Source: a virus
Lineage: Duplodnaviria; Heunggongvirae; Uroviricota; Caudoviricetes
IMG/VR virus record: IMGVR_UViG_3300045988_150638
Direction: 5' to 3' (one strand)
DNA length: 64,000 bases
Below are positions 1-51,431 of this stretch, in pieces. Position numbers and translations under genes: made by a program. The notes beneath the pieces were generated by a model, which worked only from the letters and a program-made list of their open reading frames with translations, searched no databases and was not told the DNA's origin. Position 1 is the stretch's first letter. The number at the start of each line of letters is the position of its first letter.

Positions 1-288
1 GTACCGCTGTGTGGTGTGTTTATCTGCGATGAAACTCTCCGTGATGGAATCATCATCAACGGTGAATTCGAGAAAGCAAAATTTAGCCTTTATGACTCTA
101 TAGAACCGATCATCTGCGACCGCTGGCCGCAGGCAAAAATATATCGCCTGGCAGATATTGAAAATGTAAAAAAACAAATTGCCATCACTCGCGAAGAGAA
201 AAAGGTCAAATCAGCCGCATCAGTTACGCGCAGCCGTAAAACTAAGAAGGGGCAGCCAGTAAACAGCAACCCCGAAAGCGCGCAATAG
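1..288 (+). CDS. 3' end of a gene entering from upstream of the window (first listed start at 16, frame open from base 1); possibly the C-terminus of the C1 immunity repressor, by position convergent with pacB
   Basis: Open frame from position 1 to the stop at 288; convergent with the terminase genes as in P1 (c1 next to pacB). No motif recognised. Confidence 0.3.
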   Translation, partial: VPLCGVFICDETLRDGIIINGEFEKAKFSLYDSIEPIICDRWPQAKIYRLADIENVKKQIAITREEKKVKSAASVTRSRKTKKGQPVNSNPESAQ

Positions 289-312
289 TTTCCATCCGGC
301 ATGGTTAATGAG

Positions 313-1797
313 TTATTCATTAAGCCATGCCAGAGCTTCATCAACCTGCGCTTCGTCTTCGACGCTAAGCACTTCATCTTGGGGAACATAGTTCGCCAAC
401 ATAGCGAAACAATATGTATCCCAATGGTCCGGTGAGTGCAGGTTGAGTTTTTTCTTCATATCTTCCTTTGACATCACCTTCCATTGACCTGCGGAATTTA
501 TCCCTACCGGTATCTTTGATGCTTCCTCTATAGTCGCAGCCCCCTTATCAAGCCTCATACGCCCTGATTTTACAGCTTCTGCCGCCTGAATATTCGCGAA
601 AGCGCGCATATCGAAATAAAGGCTTTTATCTTCACGGCTGTGCATCTTTTTACCCCAGCGGATACGCTGGACGGTAATGCCATAGCGTTCGTACATTAGA
701 TCAGCCGTCGATTTCCCCAAGCCATCGCCATCAATAGCTATGGTTATGTTCGGGAACCGTTCTGGGTTACATTCTGCGAAAATCTTGGCGGCTAACTGCG
801 TTTCTGTAACGTCTGTGTATTCCAGCATACGATAGTTGATTACACGGCGTTTATTTCGCTGGCCGGACACCATCATGATATTAATAACGGACTTATCTCG
901 TCCTGTGCCACCAGCAACGTCAACACATGCAACCCAGCCCCATCCTTTGGCAATCTTGACCTTTCGCCGCGTCGCCCGCTCAACCTCATCACGACCAAGA
1001 AGAAAGCCATCTTGAGATTTGGGAAATTCACCACGTACTTTGATCATGTACATGGGGTTATCACGACCGCCATACTCTGCAAGTTTTGCTCGTATAAATT
1101 TTGCATCTACAAGCGGAGATTCTTCACTATTCAGTATTATCGCAGTAAACAATCCATCAGGATTTCCCGGGCGAATAGCTAGTCTGTGGTGTGAATCGTA
1201 GAAATAGCCTGAAGGTCGCGTAGGCTGGGAAAGAAGCAGAATACGGTTATCCTTACCGGTCAGCGCACCTGTTATCACACTGAATGCTTTATCACTCACA
1301 CCCGACGCTTCGTCGATGATATACAAGAGATGATCGGCGTGTTCACCAGCCAACGCCTCCTCATTTCCGGGGCGACAGGACTTTATCAATATTGTCCAAA
1401 CACCCTTGCCAGTCACCTCAAAAAAAGACGTTTCTGTAAGAATGAAATACTTCGACAACCACGGGAATCTGCTAACAGCAGTAGCCCAATTGCTCTTTAT
1501 GTATTTGAAAATACCATCAAGGACTTGCTGTCTTTTGTTAGCGACCAGAATGACGCGAGCGCCGGGGAAAAACATGATGAAGAGTATTGCAATGATACTC
1601 GTCATATCCGATTTACCAGTACCATGGCCGGAGGTCACACTTGTCCAACTGCCGTCCTGCTGCGTGGACTCAATGATCTCATCCTGCTGCCAGGTTGGTG
1701 TCTTCCCAAACAACACATCAGCGGCCGCAATCCAGTCATAACGATATAGCGCCACCAGCTCGCGCCAACGTGGGTCCGTTACGCAACTTCTGGCCAT
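313..1797 (-). CDS. pacB: terminase large subunit (PacB)
   Basis: 494 aa; Walker A SGHGTGKS, acidic nuclease-domain residues, directly downstream of the small subunit with ATGA overlap; same length as P1 PacB. Confidence 0.9.
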
Positions 1798-2990
1798 TAA
1801 TCATCATCCCCGTACAGTTTGCGGGTAACTTCTTCGTCTTCCTCCTCGTCTTCGTCCAGATCCTGTTCAAGCCATGCTTCGTTTGATATGCCTTCCGCAT
1901 CGACATCACCATAACCACCCGTATCGACGATATCGGCAATTTCTTCTCTACGATGCTCAATCCACAATGCCGCATCAGCGCGGCGGCTGGCGGCCCGTTC
2001 TCGCGCGATTTTATCCAGATCTTCAAGTGATGGAGCGCCAGATGCTGTTTGGTTTTCCTCATCATCGGTATTGGTCTTAGGAGCACGCAGATCGGCTTTG
2101 ATTTGCTCCAGCATCAGGGGCGGCACTTTTCCTCCATGCGCCTCGATGAATTCAGCCGCTTCCAGCACTGACCAGTTATTTTCACGCTTTCGTTCGTATG
2201 CCAGCTTAACAATGCCAGCTTGCCCCATAGATAAAGCGTGCTTTTCCGCCTCCCGGCTTTCTTTTCGATAGTTATTCCGGATGCTGTAAATGGTGTTGAT
2301 CAGGCTGCTTATCTGCGCGGAACAGCTGTTTAGCATGCTCGCGATACGGTATTCAGGCGGAGTACCTTCATCATCGTCTTTTTGCTGATCGCGCATTTCC
2401 TGCACCAGGCGAATACACGTATCCCTGGCGTTCTCCAGCATAAGGAGATGAGAAAGAGACTTTTCCAGAAGAGTGGTTTCCAGAACATCGGCCCCGGACC
2501 GACGCAACATAGCGCGCGCGGCCTTCCGCGCTTCAACGTTATCTATCAGGTAATCGCCAGCTTCGAATTCAAAGCGTTCACCATCATCATCCAGGGTGTC
2601 GCGTTCCAGGCGATCACGTAAGGTCCGGTGGGCGCGGGTGATCACGTCATGATCATCTGAACGATCATTTATGCGCTTATTTTGGCGCTTCGCATTCTCG
2701 ACTGCGGCACTGACAACGGCATTAACTCTTTGTTTTTCCGCTGTTTCAGCCGCAATGTGATCACCTGCATGTTGATCATTAGAGTGATCAATGATCATGC
2801 TTTTTAGAGGCTTCCTGACTGGCTTATTTGGCTTGCGGCTGTCCGCTGTCCTGGTGTCTTCTTTGAAGGCACGGAGATAACGACGTGCGGTATTAGGGTT
2901 AAGATTAAACTCGGCGGCATACTGTGCGATGGTGTAACCACCATCTCGCGCCAGGCGAGCAAAATTCTTCTTGTGATCGTCCCAGGTCAC
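1797..2990 (-). CDS. pacA: terminase small subunit (PacA)
   Basis: 397 aa; N-terminal HTH-like region, highly acidic C-terminus, contains the pac hexamer cluster, immediately upstream of pacB. Confidence 0.8.
2611..2797. other. pac: pac packaging site: two clusters of four TGATCA/CGATCA hexamers (Dam GATC sites)
   Basis: Hexamers at 2611, 2639, 2650, 2662 and 2758, 2773, 2785, 2792, inside the 5' part of pacA; matches the known P1 pac architecture. Confidence 0.55.
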
Positions 2991-3075
2991 TTATGCTTCC
3001 TTTCGTAAAAACTCTTTTTGACGCGAGGGTAACGAAAGTCACATGTCAAAAGGCCCGGAACGGGCAAGCAATCAA

Positions 3076-3528
3076 TCAGATACGTGCGGATGTGGCATTA
3101 CCGTAATGACGGTGCTGACGGGCTACCTTATTGAAAAGTTGACGCGCCATTACCCAAGGCTGGTGTTCCCGGCGTTCCTTTTCGTCCTGCGTCATATAGA
3201 GTTCGTTCTGGAGTTTTTCATCAAACCGGCGCGGCGCGCGGCTGCGGCGAAAGAATTCAGGATTCAGAGAGTGGATCTGAAATCTACGTGGGCGTGTACT
3301 GTCATCAATCAAAACAGACGAATACTTAGACACAGCGATAGCCTTTAAGCGCAGATAAACATCGCGCTTATCGACATCCAGATGCGGGTATTCCTTTTCA
3401 AGAATTGCTGCGAGTTCTTTCGCTGATAGAAGAGATTTAGTGCGGATCATGTAATCCGCAATCTCGTACGATGTTATTCGTGAGTGATTTATTTCCATGA
3501 AGTGGCGTCCCTGCCAGTTAAGTAACAT
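3076..3528 (-). CDS. lpa: late promoter activator Lpa-like protein (by synteny; start may be the internal Met at 3495)
   Basis: 150-aa ORF between pdcB-like and pacA as in P1; C1-operator-like site just upstream; no motif-level proof. Confidence 0.4.
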   Translation of the reverse strand: MLLNWQGRHFMEINHSRITSYEIADYMIRTKSLLSAKELAAILEKEYPHLDVDKRDVYLRLKAIAVSKYSSVLIDDSTRPRRFQIHSLNPEFFRRSRAPRRFDEKLQNELYMTQDEKERREHQPWVMARQLFNKVARQHRHYGNATSARI

Positions 3529-38573: not shown

Positions 38574-39575
38574 ATGTCAAAGAAAAACAGACCAACAATT
38601 GGGCGAACCCTTAATCCTTCAATATTAAGCGGATTTGATAGTTCTTCATCCTCTGGCGATCGAGTCGAGCAGGTATTCAAGTTATCAACTGGTCGCCAGG
38701 CCACATTTATTGAAGAGGTAATACCTCCGAACCAGGTAGAAAGCGATACCTTTGTTGATCAGCATAACAACGGGCGTGACCAGACATCTCTTACGCCAAA
38801 ATCATTAAAAAGTATCCGAAGCACTATTAAGCATCAGCAATTTTACCCTGCAATAGGTGTTAGACGGGCTACAGGGAAAATTGAAATTTTGGATGGTTCC
38901 CGGCGTCGAGCTTCTGCCATCTTAGAGAACGTAGGGTTGCGGGTTTTAGTCACGGACCAGGAGATCAGCGTTCAGGAAGCGCAAAATTTAGCGAAAGACG
39001 TTCAGACAGCATTGCAGCACAGCATTCGAGAAATAGGTCTGCGTTTGATGCGAATGAAAAATGATGGGATGAGTCAGAAGGATATTGCAGCCAAGGAAGG
39101 GCTGTCTCAGGCGAAAGTCACGCGTGCTCTCCAGGCAGCGAGTGCTCCGGAAGAATTAGTCGCCCTTTTCCCTGTGCAGTCGGAATTAACCTTTTCGGAC
39201 TACAAAACGCTTTGTGCTGTTGGCGACGAAATGGGGAACAAGAATTTAGAGTTTGATCAGCTTATTCAAAACATATCCCCGGAAATAAACGACATCTTAT
39301 CCATTGAAGAAATGGCCGAAGATGAAGTTAAAAATAAAATCCTGCGCTTGATAACAAAGGAAGCCTCACTACTCACGGATAAAGGTTCTAAAGATAAGTC
39401 CGTAGTTACTGAATTATGGAAATTTGAGGACAAGGATCGCTTTGCAAGGAAGCGCGTGAAAGGCCGTGCATTTTCTTATGAGTTTAATCGACTTTCAAAA
39501 GAGCTACAGGAAGAACTCGACAGGATGATTGGGCATATCCTTAGAAAGAGCCTCGATAAAAAGCCGAAGCCTTAA
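38574..39575 (+). CDS. parB: partition protein ParB
   Basis: 333 aa; ParB/Spo0J-like N-terminal region and HTH (DIAAKEGLSQAKVTRAL); parS immediately downstream. Confidence 0.9.
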   Translation: MSKKNRPTIGRTLNPSILSGFDSSSSSGDRVEQVFKLSTGRQATFIEEVIPPNQVESDTFVDQHNNGRDQTSLTPKSLKSIRSTIKHQQFYPAIGVRRATGKIEILDGSRRRASAILENVGLRVLVTDQEISVQEAQNLAKDVQTALQHSIREIGLRLMRMKNDGMSQKDIAAKEGLSQAKVTRALQAASAPEELVALFPVQSELTFSDYKTLCAVGDEMGNKNLEFDQLIQNISPEINDILSIEEMAEDEVKNKILRLITKEASLLTDKGSKDKSVVTELWKFEDKDRFARKRVKGRAFSYEFNRLSKELQEELDRMIGHILRKSLDKKPKP

Positions 39576-39578
39576 ACT

Positions 39579-39663
39579 TTCGCCATTCAAATTTTACTAT
39601 TAACCTACTGTTTTTAAAGTAAATCACTCTAAAATTTCAAGGTGAAATCGCCACGATTTCACC
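39579..39663. other. parS: parS centromere site: heptamer boxes (ATTTCAC type) and hexamer boxes (TCGCCA) flanking an AT-rich IHF-like core
   Basis: tcgcca at 39580 and 39649; attttac, aatttca, gtgaaat, gatttcac heptamers; inverted repeat ggtgaaatcgccacgatttcacc. Confidence 0.7.
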
Positions 39664-39731
39664 TTGGATTTTACCTTCCTCACCTACTCCCGAAAAAAAT
39701 AAAAAAATTGCTTGTCACGAGAAAGTCAACA

Positions 39732-39750
39732 AGTGACTTTCAATAAAATC
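39732..39750 (+). promoter_or_regulatory. candidate late promoter: AGTGACT-N5-TAAAAT
   Basis: Shared motif about 50 nt upstream of the head gene start; embedded in the inverted repeat gaaagtca...tgactttc. Confidence 0.4.
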
Positions 39751-39779
39751 TCTTCCGAAAAGGGATTCACACAAGTGCC

Positions 39780-41507
39780 TTGTGTTTAAGGAAGAGTAAA
39801 TTGAGTAACTTACGCGAATACCAGAATCGTATTGCAGATATCGCAAAACGCTCTAAAGCTGTGCTTGGCTGGGCAAGCACTGCGCAGTTCGGTACTGATA
39901 ACCAATTCATTAAAGATGATGCCGCGCGTGCCGCATCTATCCTTGAAGCTGCACGTAAAGACCCAATTTTTGCGGGTATCTCTGATAATGCCACCGCTCA
40001 AATCGCTACAGCGTGGGCAAGTGCACTGGCTGACTACGCCGCAACACATAAATCTATGCCACGTCCGGAAATTCTGGCCTCCTGCCACCAGACGCTGGAA
40101 AACTGCCTGATTGAGTCCACCCGCAATAGCATGGATGCCACCAATAAAGCGATGCTGGAATCAGTCGCGGCAGAGATGATGAGTGTTTCTGACGGGGTTA
40201 TGCGTCTGCCTTTATTCCTGGCGATGATCCTGCCTGTTCAGTTGGGGGCAGCTACCGCTGATGCGTGTACATTCATTCCGGTTACGCGTGACAAGTCCGA
40301 AATCTATGAAATCTTTAACGTAGCGGGTTCTTCTTTTGGCTCTTATGCTATTGGTGATGTTCTGGACATGCAATCCGTTGGCGTGTACAGCCAGTTGCGC
40401 CGCCGCTATGTGCTGGTTGCAAGCTCCGACGGCACCAGCAAAACTGCAACCTTCAAGATGGAAGATGTCGAAGGTCAGAATGTCCCGATTCGCAAAGGTC
40501 GCACAAACATCTACGTTAACCGTATTAAGTCTGTTGTTGATAACGGCTCCGGCACTCTGCTTCACACATTCAATAACAAAGCAGGCGAACAAATCACTGT
40601 TACTTGCTCTTTGAATTACAACGTTGGTCAGATTGCCCTGTCGTTCTCCAAAGCGCCGGATAAAGGCACTGAGATCGCCATTGAGGTGGAGATCAATATA
40701 GAAGCAGCTCCTGAGCTGATCCCACTTATCAACCACGAAATGAAGAGTTACACCCTGTTCCCAAACCAGTTCGTCATCGCGGCTGAGCACACGGTACAGG
40801 CGGCGTATGAAGCACAGCGTGAATTTGGTCTGGATCTTGGCTCCCTACAGTTCCGCACCCTGAAGGAATACCTGTCCCATGAGCAAGATATGCTTCGTCT
40901 TCGTATCATGATTTGGCGAACTCTTGCGACCGACTCCTTTGATATTGCACTGCCAGCTAACCAGTCCTTTGATGTGTGGGCAACCATCATTCGAGGCAAA
41001 TTCCAGACGGTATATCGCGGTATTATTGAGCGTATTAAATCTTCTGGTGCGATGGGGATGTATGCCGGTGCTGATGCGGCATCTTTCTTCAAACAATTGC
41101 CGAAGGATTTCTTCCAGCCAGCAGAAGATTACATCCAGACCCCATACGTCCACTACATTGGCACTCTGTTCGGCAACGTCAAAGTGTTCGAAGTACCAGA
41201 AGGTATTTGTACGAACCTGACCGCCGACGGTATCCAGTTCAGCCCAATGGATGTGCTGTGCTACGTCCGTGATGAAAATCCGGGCAAAGCGGGCTTCGTA
41301 ACTGGTGATGCAGTCCCGGCTGTCCCATTCCAGCATCCGACCACCCCGGCACTAGTCAACCGAACCACTCTGTGGGGTTCGGCTATCAACGATATGCACC
41401 CACGTAACGGCGCTGACTACTTCACGCGTGTAACTCTGACTATGGCCAAAAATGGCGGAATTAACTTCCTGACCGGTAACATGATTGATGCCGGTGACTC
41501 TGAGTAA
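39780..41507 (+). CDS. major head protein precursor (gp23-like); listed start is TTG, an alternative TTG at 39801 has an AAGGAAG RBS
   Basis: 575-aa ORF first after parS; size fits a capsid precursor with a removable N-terminal domain; assignment mainly by synteny with P1. Confidence 0.45.
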   Translation: MCLRKSKLSNLREYQNRIADIAKRSKAVLGWASTAQFGTDNQFIKDDAARAASILEAARKDPIFAGISDNATAQIATAWASALADYAATHKSMPRPEILASCHQTLENCLIESTRNSMDATNKAMLESVAAEMMSVSDGVMRLPLFLAMILPVQLGAATADACTFIPVTRDKSEIYEIFNVAGSSFGSYAIGDVLDMQSVGVYSQLRRRYVLVASSDGTSKTATFKMEDVEGQNVPIRKGRTNIYVNRIKSVVDNGSGTLLHTFNNKAGEQITVTCSLNYNVGQIALSFSKAPDKGTEIAIEVEINIEAAPELIPLINHEMKSYTLFPNQFVIAAEHTVQAAYEAQREFGLDLGSLQFRTLKEYLSHEQDMLRLRIMIWRTLATDSFDIALPANQSFDVWATIIRGKFQTVYRGIIERIKSSGAMGMYAGADAASFFKQLPKDFFQPAEDYIQTPYVHYIGTLFGNVKVFEVPEGICTNLTADGIQFSPMDVLCYVRDENPGKAGFVTGDAVPAVPFQHPTTPALVNRTTLWGSAINDMHPRNGADYFTRVTLTMAKNGGINFLTGNMIDAGDSE

Positions 41508-46744: not shown

Positions 46745-47545
46745 TTAGCGCGTTGCCGCGACAGGTACCAGCACACCAGCATCAAGCAATCGCTTCATCA
46801 GCCACTGCTGACCTTTGCCGGTTATACGAGTCGTGAAAGAAATCCTGCTTCCATTGCTTGTATCGATCACGGTTTCTTTAAGGGTGAAATACCCACGGGA
46901 TATGTATTCTTGTTTGGGGACGTTCCTGCGTTCACCGGTTGCGATCAGAATTCCGTTATCACGCAACCAGGTGAAGAGATAGTTTTGGCCCAGACCGAGC
47001 ACTTTGGCATAGTTGCCGATTAGAACCCCGCTGGCGGTAGCAACGCGTTCGGCGAATTCGACTTTAGGTGCATCCATAAGCATTTTTTGCTCCAGCCGTT
47101 GCTTTTGCTCTGCCAGGTCGGCAGCCAAACGGAGAGCTTCAGGGAGACTCTGCGGAATAGCAGGTTGTAATCTTCCGGCTCGATAGTCGATAAATGTCTG
47201 GTTTACCTTCAGCCGAAACGCGGGAGAAATCCAGCCTGCGTACTCCACAGCGAGCAATTCATGGGCAAAAGTGCCGCCGCCACGGCCTTCGAACGAAACT
47301 ATGCAATTCTGCATAGTTTCTTTTTCAAGCTCTTCGATGAGCTGTTTGGCTGACAGCGTTCTTAGCCATTGAGCTGGCGCTTTATGGGCACCGAGTCCGC
47401 TCGCTCTGTGTAGAGCATTAAGGTTGTAACGGCCAGCGCGGTCGGTCGTAATTTCAACACCACAAATAACAGGCAGAGTGGTTGAAGGATCGACATTTTG
47501 ATGAAGGTTTGATATATTCATATCCGCATTGAATGTTTGTTGCAT
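46745..47545 (-). CDS. kilA: KilA (KilA-N domain plus Ant-like C-terminal domain)
   Basis: 266 aa; C-terminal half is paralogous to the Ant C-terminus (PEALRLAA-LAEQK, GNYAKVLG, YFTLKE); C1-operator-like site upstream. Confidence 0.7.
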   Translation of the reverse strand: MQQTFNADMNISNLHQNVDPSTTLPVICGVEITTDRAGRYNLNALHRASGLGAHKAPAQWLRTLSAKQLIEELEKETMQNCIVSFEGRGGGTFAHELLAVEYAGWISPAFRLKVNQTFIDYRAGRLQPAIPQSLPEALRLAADLAEQKQRLEQKMLMDAPKVEFAERVATASGVLIGNYAKVLGLGQNYLFTWLRDNGILIATGERRNVPKQEYISRGYFTLKETVIDTSNGSRISFTTRITGKGQQWLMKRLLDAGVLVPVAATR

Positions 47546-47708: not shown

Positions 47709-48752
47709 TTAACCTATTGCTACTGGTTTTAACAAACCAGCATCAAGTAGCTTGCGAGTTAACCACTGCTGGCCTTTACCCGTTAATTGGGGCGTCAGCC
47801 GTATCTGGTAGCCATTTTCATCATCCAGCACCACTTCTTTCACCGTGAAATACCCGGCGTTAATGTACTGCTGGCGCGGTACGTTTTTGCGCGCACCAAA
47901 AGCCATGAGAATGCCGTTCTGGCGCAACCATGAGAAAAGGGCGTTTTGCTTAAGTCCAACGACCTTTGCAAAGTTCCCGATCAGGATTCCATTAGCCACT
48001 GATACCCGGTCGGCAAAATCGACTTTAGGGGCTGCGGCCACCAGCTGTTGTTCCAGCTGCAATTTCTGTTCTGCCAACTCGGCAGCCAGGCGTAGGGCTT
48101 CTGGTAATGTTTGGGGGATCGATGGGGTAGGGGAGTTTGCCTGCTGCAATTCTTCCAGTTTGTCGATCAGCGAACGGCGGACCGCTTTCGATTCGCGCGC
48201 GGCGACTCGCAGGGCTTGTTTGTAGGTCATGGTTATGACAACCATAGGCGTACCGCCACCTGGCGGCACGGTTGCACTTTTTGTGTAACCGTCCTCACCT
48301 TCTAATTCGTCGAGTATTTTTTCGATGAATTTGTTGTTCCGAACCTCTGGTTCCCCACATAACTTACGCGCTTCATTGACCATCTTTAACAGTGTCAGGC
48401 TGTCGATTGTGTCTCCGGTGGTGGGGATGACATTCACGGCTGGTGCTGGCGTTGCTGAAGCAACAGGTGCTGGTTTTTTAACATTCAAATTATTACTGGT
48501 CATTCTATGTGCCTCCTTTCTCATTTCTGCTGCCACCGTTGCGTAACGTAGACGTCCTTGTTCAATCAAATAATCCCTGATCTCGGCTATCAGTAGCCTG
48601 TTGATCACAGCCTTATCTGTTCGGGTATAAAAACGCCTGGTTATCATGAAATAGTTGGCAATTGCGCCGGGGATCTCCCGTGTCGGTATACAGGCAGTAT
48701 GCAGGGCGATCGCTTCGGCTATGTCATTACGGGTGACGAGAGGTTTTTTCAT
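47709..48752 (-). CDS. ant: antirepressor Ant (immI region)
   Basis: 347 aa; C-terminal Ant/KilA-C-like domain; start overlaps the icd stop. Confidence 0.7.
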   Translation of the reverse strand: MKKPLVTRNDIAEAIALHTACIPTREIPGAIANYFMITRRFYTRTDKAVINRLLIAEIRDYLIEQGRLRYATVAAEMRKEAHRMTSNNLNVKKPAPVASATPAPAVNVIPTTGDTIDSLTLLKMVNEARKLCGEPEVRNNKFIEKILDELEGEDGYTKSATVPPGGGTPMVVITMTYKQALRVAARESKAVRRSLIDKLEELQQANSPTPSIPQTLPEALRLAAELAEQKLQLEQQLVAAAPKVDFADRVSVANGILIGNFAKVVGLKQNALFSWLRQNGILMAFGARKNVPRQQYINAGYFTVKEVVLDDENGYQIRLTPQLTGKGQQWLTRKLLDAGLLKPVAIG

Positions 48753-48970
48753 AAACCCCCCTGAACGTCGGCAGAGAAGGGGAGGCTCCAGTAACTAAGT
48801 GAATTGCGCGAGTTAGTTGAAAAACGGGCAGTAAAAATGCAGGGGCCATCAGGCAATTGAGAGCGTGCTTCGTCTTCAGTTGCTGCGATAACGAAGTGAT
48901 AGTGGTGTTTTTTACAGGAATAGAAACGCCAGATGAATTCTGGGCGTGCGCAAGGATTGGCATTAACCAT
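48749..48970 (-). CDS. icd: Icd-like small protein (interference with cell division) overlapping ant
   Basis: 73-aa ORF with 4-nt overlap to ant; assignment by size and position. Confidence 0.45.
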   Translation of the reverse strand: MVNANPCARPEFIWRFYSCKKHHYHFVIAATEDEARSQLPDGPCIFTARFSTNSRNSLSYWSLPFSADVQGGL

Positions 48971-49280
48971 AGTTACGGCCTCACAATCAGGTTTAACAAC
49001 CTGCTACCCGCTGCTAAACAGGTGGCAGGACGTGACGGGGTTAGCAGACTGGCGATTGTGAAACCAGCAGGCCGAAGCCTCCCCATCACGCCCCACCATA
49101 ATTTGGGCGTAACGCGGTTTTACGGACACAAAAATACCGCAATATCGGATATCTGCGGCTGTCCGCACAATCATTCAGGCTGCTAAACCCGGTCGCAGAA
49201 TTTGCTACGACGGCGGAACTATAAGCCTGAACGATTAAAAGGTCAATATGATGCGAAAAGATAGCATTCGTGACTTAAAA
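48971..49280 (-). ncRNA. c4: interval expected to encode the C4-type antisense immunity RNA and its promoter-proximal target sites (not delimited)
   Basis: Non-coding leader between the operator at 49285 and icd, with several hairpins; inferred from P1 immI organisation only. Confidence 0.3.
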
Positions 49281-49284
49281 ATAC

Positions 49285-49301
49285 AAATTTATTAGAGCAT
49301 T
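49285..49301 (-). promoter_or_regulatory. C1-operator-like site (aaatttattagagcatt, 1 mismatch) at the immI promoter
   Basis: 16/17 match at the head of the c4-icd-ant transcription unit. Confidence 0.55.
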
Positions 49302-49397
49302 ATCTGCTTAATAAATACACAATTGGATCTAATAACCTCTTTTTTTTAAAGGCGAAAATATGTACCCTAAATGGGTTATAAGGCAGGTGAGGTTATA

Positions 49398-49529
49398 ATG
49401 AGAAAACTATTACTATCGTTATTATTTATGGCTGGGACTGTTAATGCAGCATCAAGCGTAAAGGAGATTTGTACCGATTATACGAAATACCTTTGGCAAG
49501 TTTACGCCTTTGCGATCAATGACTATTAA
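49398..49529 (+). CDS. small secreted peptide (44 aa, signal peptide)
   Basis: MRKLLLSLLFMAGTVNA|ASSVKEICTDYTKYLWQVYAFAINDY; AGGTGAGG RBS; AT-rich; not in ORF track. Confidence 0.4.
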   Translation: MRKLLLSLLFMAGTVNAASSVKEICTDYTKYLWQVYAFAINDY

Positions 49530-49550
49530 TCCATGCGTAGGAGTGGATTT

Positions 49551-49868
49551 ATGCTGATTCGTTTGTTTTTAGTGCTTTCCTTTTTAACATTTAATGTTTT
49601 TGCTGATGAAGTTGACTTTTCGAAGGTAGATTGTAATTCAGTGGAAACAAGAAAAGCTCTTATTGAAGAATATAACGAAATATTATCGTCATATGGAATA
49701 ACAGTGGTTGATTCTTATAATCAAAAAACTATTCAGAAAGGAATAAATAAACTGGTCTGTTATGGGGTTTACCAATATTCAGATGGCTCTTCGGAGTATG
49801 TTATTTATAAAGCATACCCAAATAGTCTTGGTGAATTAATTAGTGAGTTTAAACCGATTAATGAGTGA
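49551..49868 (+). CDS. secreted protein (105 aa, signal peptide, 2 Cys)
   Basis: Start at second ATG with AGGAG RBS; MLIRLFLVLSFLTFNVFA|DEVDF... Confidence 0.5.
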   Translation: MLIRLFLVLSFLTFNVFADEVDFSKVDCNSVETRKALIEEYNEILSSYGITVVDSYNQKTIQKGINKLVCYGVYQYSDGSSEYVIYKAYPNSLGELISEFKPINE

Positions 49869-49875
49869 ATGGAAA

Positions 49876-50655
49876 ATGAAATTATTTAATGTAATAACAT
49901 TTTGTTGTGCTATTTTTGCTGGAAGCGCGATAGCTGATAATAAATTGCCAGATTGGCTTTCTACCTCAAAGAAAGATTATGATTTAGTAAGGGCATTCTA
50001 TTTGTCTGGATTTGCTTCGAAAGCAATGAACAATCAATTTGGTTATCATTTGCCATCTGAGTTGGTTAATGATTTTAAAGATAATGAATTTGCTGCTCAG
50101 GAAAAATGGAACACAATTCCAATTGTGTATGGTGAAATAAAATCCATAAGAATGGTGAATAATAAACCAATTGTAGAGTTATTTACTCCAGGGGAAAATG
50201 CAACGCCACTAAATTATATCAAATTGAAAATATTGGATTCAAAGCAAGACTCTCTGTTAAAACTAAAAAAAGGGGATGATATATATGCAGTGTGCTCAGG
50301 TGCTAATTTTAGCTTAGTGCCAATTCTGAGCAACTGCACTCCTGCAACAGACGTCATTGATGCTGCACTCTCTTTTTCTGGTGAATATATGTTCCCTGCT
50401 TTTGATTCTTTTTCACCTACTAAGCAAAACGTCAAATATATATTCACAAATCAAGATCCTGTTCAGATGATGAATTTTATAGGGTACCTATCCTTAGTCG
50501 ATACAACGAAGGATAAGAAAAAAATGGATATGGTTCGTAAGTGTACGCCTTGGAAGCCGGAATGTTCACAACAATTCGTTGATGTAATGGAAGGATTTGA
50601 TAGCATCATGTATAAATATGAGGGAGAATTTAAAAATTACATAGAATTAAAATAG
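49876..50655 (+). CDS. secreted/periplasmic protein (259 aa, signal peptide), possible Sim-like superinfection-exclusion protein
   Basis: MKLFNVITFCCAIFAGSAIA|DNKL...; several Cys in the mature part; AT-rich codons; own terminator downstream. Confidence 0.5.
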   Translation: MKLFNVITFCCAIFAGSAIADNKLPDWLSTSKKDYDLVRAFYLSGFASKAMNNQFGYHLPSELVNDFKDNEFAAQEKWNTIPIVYGEIKSIRMVNNKPIVELFTPGENATPLNYIKLKILDSKQDSLLKLKKGDDIYAVCSGANFSLVPILSNCTPATDVIDAALSFSGEYMFPAFDSFSPTKQNVKYIFTNQDPVQMMNFIGYLSLVDTTKDKKKMDMVRKCTPWKPECSQQFVDVMEGFDSIMYKYEGEFKNYIELK

Positions 50656-50686
50656 TATTTGAAAGGATAGTCAATTTAAGTTTTAA

Positions 50687-50714
50687 AAAAACGCCCATTA
50701 AAGGGCGTTTTATT
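50687..50714 (+). terminator. rho-independent terminator (aaacgccc-attaa-gggcgttt + T-run)
   Basis: Stem-loop and TTTTATTGTTTT directly after the island's last gene. Confidence 0.6.
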
Positions 50715-50815
50715 GTTTTACTCAAAACAACCTGATTATGTGATAACCATATCATATCCCTCATTCCACCTACACTGATTACCCCCCAGACAACAATATT
50801 CCTACTCAATGAACA

Positions 50816-50834
50816 AATGACTACTCGTAGAATC
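50816..50834 (+). promoter_or_regulatory. candidate late promoter: AATGACT-N5-TAGAAT
   Basis: Near-identical to the 20318 element; 30 nt upstream of the 50865 start; followed by the inverted repeat cgtagaatc...gattctacg. Confidence 0.4.
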
Positions 50835-50840
50835 GGTTAA

Positions 50841-51431
<591 letters not shown>

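Follow-up and report, generated by a model that had tools for sequence, protein, structure and literature searches.

The AT-rich island of a P1-like phage-plasmid is the simA-simB-simC superimmunity operon, an exchangeable cassette bordered by Oc4 and LPsit

The AT-rich island at positions 49300-50720 of a 64,000-nucleotide (nt) stretch of the viral record IMGVR_UViG_3300045988_150638 (Duplodnaviria; Heunggongvirae; Uroviricota; Caudoviricetes), a stretch that we call the window, is the simA-simB-simC superimmunity operon of phage P1. An original prediction made from the letters of the window had suggested that the island might be a sim-like module, and the comparison with P1 identifies it as the sim operon itself. 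Our overall account, which we hold to be very probable, is that the window derives from a P1-like phage-plasmid, that its sim operon is an exchanged cassette, and that SimC mediates a block to superinfection in the periplasm. The identity of the operon with P1 sim, its anatomy and borders, the distribution of its genes and the predicted folds of its products are documented below.

A megablast search of positions 49200-50800 against phage records recovered phage P1 over the full 1601 nt at 98.9% nucleotide identity, with simC, simB and simA as the annotated features. When compared with the P1 reference (NC_005856, sim genes P1_gp041-043), SimB is identical (111/111 residues), SimC matches at 258 of 259 residues (one N to K replacement) and SimA at 48 of 52, which settles the homology check against P1 SimA, SimB and SimC that the original prediction had proposed. 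GenBank entry M34382, the original 1990 sim record ('sim region ORF 1 / ORF 2'), also matches the island and contains the same open reading frames (ORFs). The island and the P1 operon (M34382, NC_005856) thus have the same genes in the same order and with the same orientation relative to c4, and they share the operator, the terminator and the late promoter on the flank. They differ at four of the 52 residues of SimA and at one of SimC, and the flanks of the island are about 97.5% identical to P1, so the window comes from a P1 relative and not from P1. The best match of the region among plasmid records (positions 48900-51400) was the Escherichia coli plasmid NZ_MH844525.1 (99.8%).

The P1 reference carries c4, icd and ant1/2 on one strand and simA, simB and simC on the other, with the operator Oc4 (Op51) and the predicted promoter PsimA between them. 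Downstream of simC follow LPsit and then pmgC-tub-pmgB-sit, and both Oc4 and LPsit of the window are colinear with their P1 positions. Consequently, the doubt about whether strand and gene arrangement fit sim was unfounded, since simABC is divergent from c4 in P1 as well; co-transcription of sim with c4, the arrangement that had been expected, is ruled out by the opposite strands. Note that the literature already covers the island together with its composition, variability and function. As an identification of a known operon, correctly recognised, the result adds little to an operon that was sequenced in 1990, annotated in P1 and listed as a low-G+C variable region. The small new points are the probable simA stump, the exact borders of the slot, the OB fold predicted for SimC and the modular nature of SimB.

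The guanine plus cytosine (G+C) content of the island is 0.327, compared with a mean of 0.476 for the window (standard deviation 0.030 over 1421-nt segments). This is about five standard deviations under the mean and represents the lowest value of any 1421-nt segment in the 64 kb, in line with the lower G+C that had been noted relative to the flanks. The cassette begins at the C1 operator Oc4 (49285..49301, no strand assigned; AAATTTATTAGAGCATT), which is identical to the annotated P1 operator, and is followed by PsimA (49307..49333, plus strand; CTTAAT ... TCTAAT), a weak sigma-70 promoter predicted at a position transferred from the P1 annotation. Three consecutive plus-strand genes of 43, 105 and 259 amino acids (aa) then essentially reproduce the 44, 105 and 259 aa that were originally described. 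The first, simA (49398..49529; 52 aa if counted from the ATG at 49371), encodes a predicted signal peptide and about 26 further residues. The second, simB (49551..49868; 111 aa from 49533), encodes a small protein with two Cys that is predicted to be exported and to adopt a cystatin-like alpha+beta fold. The third, simC (49876..50655; 264 aa from 49861), is the original sim gene and its product combines a predicted signal peptide, helices, a predicted tRNA_anti-like OB fold and a helical C-terminal part that contains Cys.

The strong terminator that had been noted after these genes was confirmed as an intrinsic terminator at 50688..50711 on the plus strand, with a 9-bp stem (five G-C pairs) followed by a T-rich tail. 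Its predicted fold has a free energy of -14.5 kcal/mol (z = -3.4), and none of 200 shuffled sequences was as stable. The terminator is kept in seven of seven P1-type alleles and is also present in pMS6198C despite the different cassette of this plasmid. The right edge of the cassette is the late promoter LPsit (50815..50833, plus strand), base-for-base identical to its P1 counterpart. Signal peptides were called with a simple heuristic (n-region, h-region and AXA motif) and not with SignalP. Each of the three N-termini showed positive charge, a hydrophobic core and an AXA-type site, with predicted cleavage at VNA|A in SimA, VFA|D in SimB and AIA|D in SimC, the latter after residue 20. The window has 84 ORFs of 100 aa or longer, and only two of them, one being simC, passed this heuristic. 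Three signal-peptide proteins had been proposed, and the part that stands is that all three leaders are predicted; simA is probably a gene stump and not a third functional protein.

The interval between Oc4 and LPsit is a cassette-exchange slot with sharp borders. On the left, homology to P7, SJ46 and RCS47 stops at about 49299, which is the end of the operator, and on the right it resumes precisely at LPsit in all five alternative cassettes that were compared (alignment A4). The slot was seen with at least five different cassettes (loci L002-L005 and L007). The P7 cassette (upf50.5/upf50.0) encodes a DUF5384 protein and the lipoprotein upf50.5, the latter with a sub-threshold match to the TraT surface-exclusion family (23.1 bits, gathering threshold 31). 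The slot of pO111_2 encodes two secreted proteins, a long SimA of 215 aa and a YfjT-like one; in pLAO38 it is occupied by a 163-aa long SimA, a YfjT-like protein and an SH3 protein, and in pMS6198C by a membrane protein with four helices together with a YfjT-like and a DUF4760 protein. These cassettes resemble sim in being bordered by Oc4 and LPsit, in lying nearly all on the same strand and in encoding exported, lipoprotein or membrane products; all products of the alternative cassettes examined have a predicted leader, lipobox or transmembrane segments. Unlike sim, they encode proteins unrelated to SimB and SimC, and yet pO111_2 and pLAO38 share the first 50 or so codons with simA. We also observed a composite slot in a Logan contig (SRR14689322; L007, positions 209-3109), in which a 107-aa membrane protein gene, simB, simC (83% identical), a full-length long simA and a YfjT-like gene follow each other. 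Modules of the slot therefore appear to be stackable as well as swappable.

The low G+C and the sharp borders mark the operon as an accessory cassette (a moron) that has been exchanged horizontally and lies outside the conserved P1 backbone. This pattern is in line with the listing of simC-simB-simA as one of eight highly variable, low-G+C regions of P1-like phage-plasmids (PMC9603915). Furthermore, knock-down of simA, simB and simC in a genome-wide CRISPR interference screen had no effect on lytic growth of P1, and the three genes were classified as non-essential (PMC10695390). A part of positions 48900-51400 was matched by 628 plasmid records, 134 of which cover at least 80% and carry the whole P1-type cassette. 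Among 5426 complete E. coli genomes, the pmgC-tub backbone was found in 509 and simB-simC in 129. About a quarter of P1-like elements carry sim. P1-like phage-plasmids often carry resistance genes in Enterobacteriaceae, and the content of the slot may consequently influence which elements coexist in a strain.

This distribution bears on the possibility that the cassette mainly serves the lysogen in some other way (by protecting it from unrelated phages, colicins or conjugation, or by remodelling the envelope) and that the exclusion of P1 observed with multicopy clones is a side effect of overproduction. The presence of sim in only about a quarter of P1-like elements argues that self-exclusion is no conserved need, the alternative cassettes encode unrelated envelope proteins (the lipoprotein with the sub-threshold TraT match and the DUF5384, YfjT-like, SH3 and DUF4760 proteins), and a conjugative plasmid and a chromosome carry SimB-like genes outside any P1 backbone. 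However, the published phenotype is exclusion of P1, simB-simC is found almost only in P1-like elements and there in the Oc4-LPsit slot, and no defence model of PADLOC was matched. We therefore consider another main role unlikely and favour superinfection exclusion by SimC.

As judged from sequence comparison, P1 simA is probably a 5' stump, left by the truncation of a longer gene for a secreted protein that relatives still carry intact. SimA is 84-92% identical to the N-terminus (about 50 codons) of ORFs of 172-224 aa in pO111_2 and pLAO38 (L003 and L004; 163-215 aa when counted from the MRKLLL start), and it matches positions 1-41 of the 213 positions of phrog_3933. In the DNA alignment, the stop codon TAA of simA lies opposite a GAA of the long gene, and homology continues for about 12 nt past the stop before breaking at about 49540, just before the ribosome-binding site of simB. 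Predicted ArgR boxes have been placed inside simC and at the simA/simB junction of P1 (nt 47906; PMC2409434). The junction box (about 49535 in the window) coincides with this break of homology. The long gene lies at 999-1646 in L003, 3972-4490 in L004, 1921-2568 in L007 and 5059-5598 in L008. The last of these loci belongs to a more distant P1-like element (GCA_005690115.1), in which an intact long simA of 179 aa stands directly upstream of simB-simC in the same slot. This arrangement points to an ancestral operon of long simA, simB and simC, and an internal deletion in the P1 lineage would be the simplest history.

Comparison of seven P1-type alleles, a small sample, revealed protein-changing variation at four of the 43 codons of simA, the highest density of the three genes. 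A 1-nt deletion frameshifts simA in one allele (Escherichia albertii p2RM10705), and the gene is not called by the NCBI pipeline in plasmid records. These patterns speak against a second alternative, in which SimA, SimB and SimC would act as one complex, as the P1 annotation of a 'superimmunity accessory function' suggests. Such a complex would fit three co-oriented, tightly spaced genes whose products all have predicted leaders, a simA ORF that stays open in six of the seven alleles, and the long simA retained directly upstream of simB-simC in L008. On the other hand, P1 simA has lost 75-85% of the parent protein, the simB-simC pair of the composite slot is preceded by the unrelated 107-aa membrane protein and not by simA, and the original functional sim gene is ORF 2 (simC) of M34382. 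A complex that includes SimA is accordingly improbable in our judgement, and we continue with SimC as the effector.

SimC is nearly an orphan. An exhaustive HMMER search over 1.84 billion protein representatives returned 15 matches at E <= 0.001, mostly fragments of the same protein; a word-indexed protein search returned only four SimC clusters and a profile search 14, again mostly fragments. Three distant relatives (P0012, P0014 and P0015; E-values of 9e-9, 6e-5 and 7e-4 in the same 1.84 billion proteins) are small exported proteins that pass the Pfam family PF12869, tRNA_anti-like, with 53.8, 25.9 and 43.7 bits, respectively. Residues 62-154 of SimC itself align to positions 52-144 of the 146 positions of this family. 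The AlphaFold model consists of helices (32-78), a beta barrel (83-156) and a helical C-terminal half, the barrel being five-stranded and modelled like the OB barrel of the solved PF12869 family structure, with a predicted local distance difference test (pLDDT) score of 80-85. The centre of SimC (about residues 60-157) is assigned a tRNA_anti-like OB fold. The best matches to SimC among predicted viral structures were phage proteins named tRNA_anti-like, nucleic acid-binding lipoprotein and host cell surface-exposed lipoprotein; in sequence searches, the SimC-family profile reached no solved structure. None of the three Sim proteins matched a family above threshold in Pfam, NCBIfam or PADLOC, with no match in PADLOC 2.0 at E <= 0.01, and in PHROGs they matched only families of unknown function.

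The SimB model is of higher confidence (pLDDT 86.6 overall and about 96 in the mature part). It shows one helix packed on a four-stranded antiparallel sheet and two conserved Cys, and the fold is predicted to be of a cystatin-like alpha+beta type. The family is small (18 clusters). SimB-like genes that lack a SimC partner were found on a conjugative plasmid, where the neighbour has an LprI domain, on a chromosome, and on a different phage-plasmid with a YfjT-like gene alongside. Phage D6 carries, elsewhere in its genome, a SimB-like domain joined to an unrelated C-terminal domain. The loci of these SimB-like proteins, the D6 fusion included, are L016 5001-5351, L018 5001-5447, L020 5001-5375 and L009 2848-3744. 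The D6 gene, orf79, had been considered as a SimB-SimC fusion, and this was ruled out because a tblastn search with SimC was empty in D6 and the gene lies elsewhere, next to mat.

The following sequence of events would account for these features. The sim genes would be transcribed from the weak promoter just past Oc4, away from c4-icd-ant, and transcription would end at the terminator of the operon before LPsit. SimC would be exported by the Sec pathway, lose its 20-residue leader and reside in the periplasm as a mature protein of about 239 aa, and SimB would probably be exported there as well. SimC would then block superinfecting P1 after adsorption and before its DNA reaches the cytoplasm. 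According to one paper that cites the original studies, Sim may keep a superinfecting phage from injecting its DNA into the cytoplasm (PMC8546580). The part of SimC responsible may be the OB-fold domain together with the helical C-terminal domain, and its putative binding partner would belong to the periplasmic section of the route by which P1 delivers its genome; candidates are Sit (the tape-measure/transglycosylase, once ejected), the tip of the tail tube or the DNA itself. SimB would be a small protein of the periplasm in its own right, with an inhibitor-like (cystatin-like) fold and under strong constraint beside simC, that either helps SimC or excludes something else. Finally, simA would be a decaying stump whose promoter and leader region now serve simB-simC. 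Given the links of SimC to PF12869 proteins and its predicted OB fold, a periplasmic block mediated by this fold is a reasonable hypothesis for Sim.

Several observations weigh against this account. The export and processing of Sim and the exclusion phenotype rest on the P1 literature; the study of Maillou and Dreiseikelmann (1990) reportedly concerns the processing of the Sim precursor. Exclusion of P1 was seen with sim on multicopy plasmids, so that it is uncertain how strongly a single-copy prophage would exclude. PsimA was missed by our consensus promoter scan and remains a poor, predicted promoter. SimC scores below the gathering threshold of PF12869 (19.1 versus 23.5 bits, E = 0.001), and its model, built from eight sequences, is of moderate confidence (overall pLDDT 72.4). 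OB folds can bind DNA, sugars or protein. The occurrence of SimB-like genes without SimC suggests that SimB is an independent module and not an obligate partner, so that it need not be a SimC accessory. Lastly, simC varies among the seven alleles at 12 of 259 codons with protein-changing and 12 with silent differences, and one phage allele is frameshifted, a combination that fits either an arms race or relaxed constraint. In that allele, from phage vB_EcoM-813R1 (L015, positions 1126-1904), a 1-nt deletion splits simC, which is annotated as two SimC pieces. Since this phage was isolated, an induced and viable P1-like phage can apparently lack an intact simC.

A third alternative is that the island is a decaying and functionless AT-rich foreign remnant, perhaps silenced. 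The very low G+C, the weak predicted promoter, the dispensability for lytic growth and the frameshifted alleles of simA and simC would all agree with decay. Nevertheless, simB changes the protein at only one of 105 codons, with the protein invariant in six of the seven alleles alongside four silent changes, and simB-simC is intact and syntenic in the same slot of the divergent element L008 at 61% (SimB) and 39% (SimC) protein identity. SimB and SimC also give confident or fairly confident folded models, and the exclusion phenotype is published. We regard the remnant explanation as highly improbable. Like the other-role and SimA-inclusive alternatives, it is less likely than the operon with SimC-mediated exclusion, to which we now return.

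In outline, Sim resembles SieA of P22, Imm and Sp of T4, Ltp of Streptococcus thermophilus phage TP-J34 and gp15 of HK97, as prophage-expressed envelope proteins that allow adsorption and stop genome entry. No sequence relationship between Sim and SieA, Imm/Sp, Ltp or gp15 was detected, nor any Pfam, NCBIfam or PADLOC family in common. SieA, Imm and gp15 reside in the inner membrane and Ltp is a lipoprotein; SimC, by contrast, is predicted to be soluble in the periplasm. The likeness to PF12869 proteins (structure 3f1z; TcdC of Clostridioides difficile) lies in the fold of the central domain, which in SimC, as in many members, comes after a predicted N-terminal export or anchor signal. SimC departs from these members in its sub-threshold score and in an additional C-terminal half, which is helical, about 100 aa long and contains conserved Cys residues. 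In vitro, TcdC binds quadruplex DNA, and homologues of it are found in the lysogeny modules of Gram-positive temperate phages of Lactobacillus and Leuconostoc (PMC3575817).

Exported OB-fold proteins of the PF12869 kind are common in phage genomes, where annotation sometimes shows them beside Ltp-type 'host cell surface-exposed lipoprotein' domains or as fusions with these. A more far-reaching proposal would be that the exported tRNA_anti-like OB fold of SimC captures the incoming genome end or the ejected tape-measure, that such proteins form a widespread and unrecognised class of exclusion proteins, that the Oc4-LPsit interval of P1-like phage-plasmids is a dedicated exchange site for exclusion cassettes that act at the envelope, and that simA is the fossil of a previous occupant. 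This proposal is conceivable and we hold it tentatively, with more doubt than belief. The OB fold predicted for SimC and the cystatin-like fold predicted for SimB nevertheless constitute handles on how Sim stops the entry of P1 DNA, as do the natural variants, namely the simB-simC pair with a SimC of 39% identity, the frameshifted alleles and the relatives with an intact long simA.

In the neighbourhood of the island, its divergence from the c4-icd-ant unit, as originally described, was confirmed, with the C4 RNA, its a1/b1 targets and the ANT-domain proteins all on the minus strand. The C4 antisense RNA, at the start of the unit, lies at 49018..49103 (Rfam RF01695, 69.6 bits, gathering threshold 45), the same position as the P1 c4 misc_RNA. 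The a1/b1 targets in the c4 leader lie at 49172..49224 (RF03163, 55.5 bits, gathering threshold 46.7). The promoter P1c4 (P51b) of immI was found at 49218..49246 on the minus strand by a consensus scan (TTGACC, 17-nt spacer, TATAGT; 10/12 matches) and coincides with the P1 annotation. Past LPsit, pmgC (50865..51431, plus strand) is the first gene of the late tail operon in both the ORF list and the P1 annotation. The ANT domains were detected by domain search in two minus-strand proteins (46745-47545 and 47709-48752), kilA and ant1, both of which end in a KilAC/ANT domain with very similar C-termini (PEALRLAA-LAEQK...); these are tandem paralogous antirepressor-type proteins. Apart from the island, the window drops below a G+C of 0.38 only at 39301-39800. 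This stretch was considered as a related low-G+C island and ruled out, as a ParB-like ORF (38574-39575) ends there and the rest is the gap that separates this ORF from one of 575 aa; the partition site region is its probable identity.

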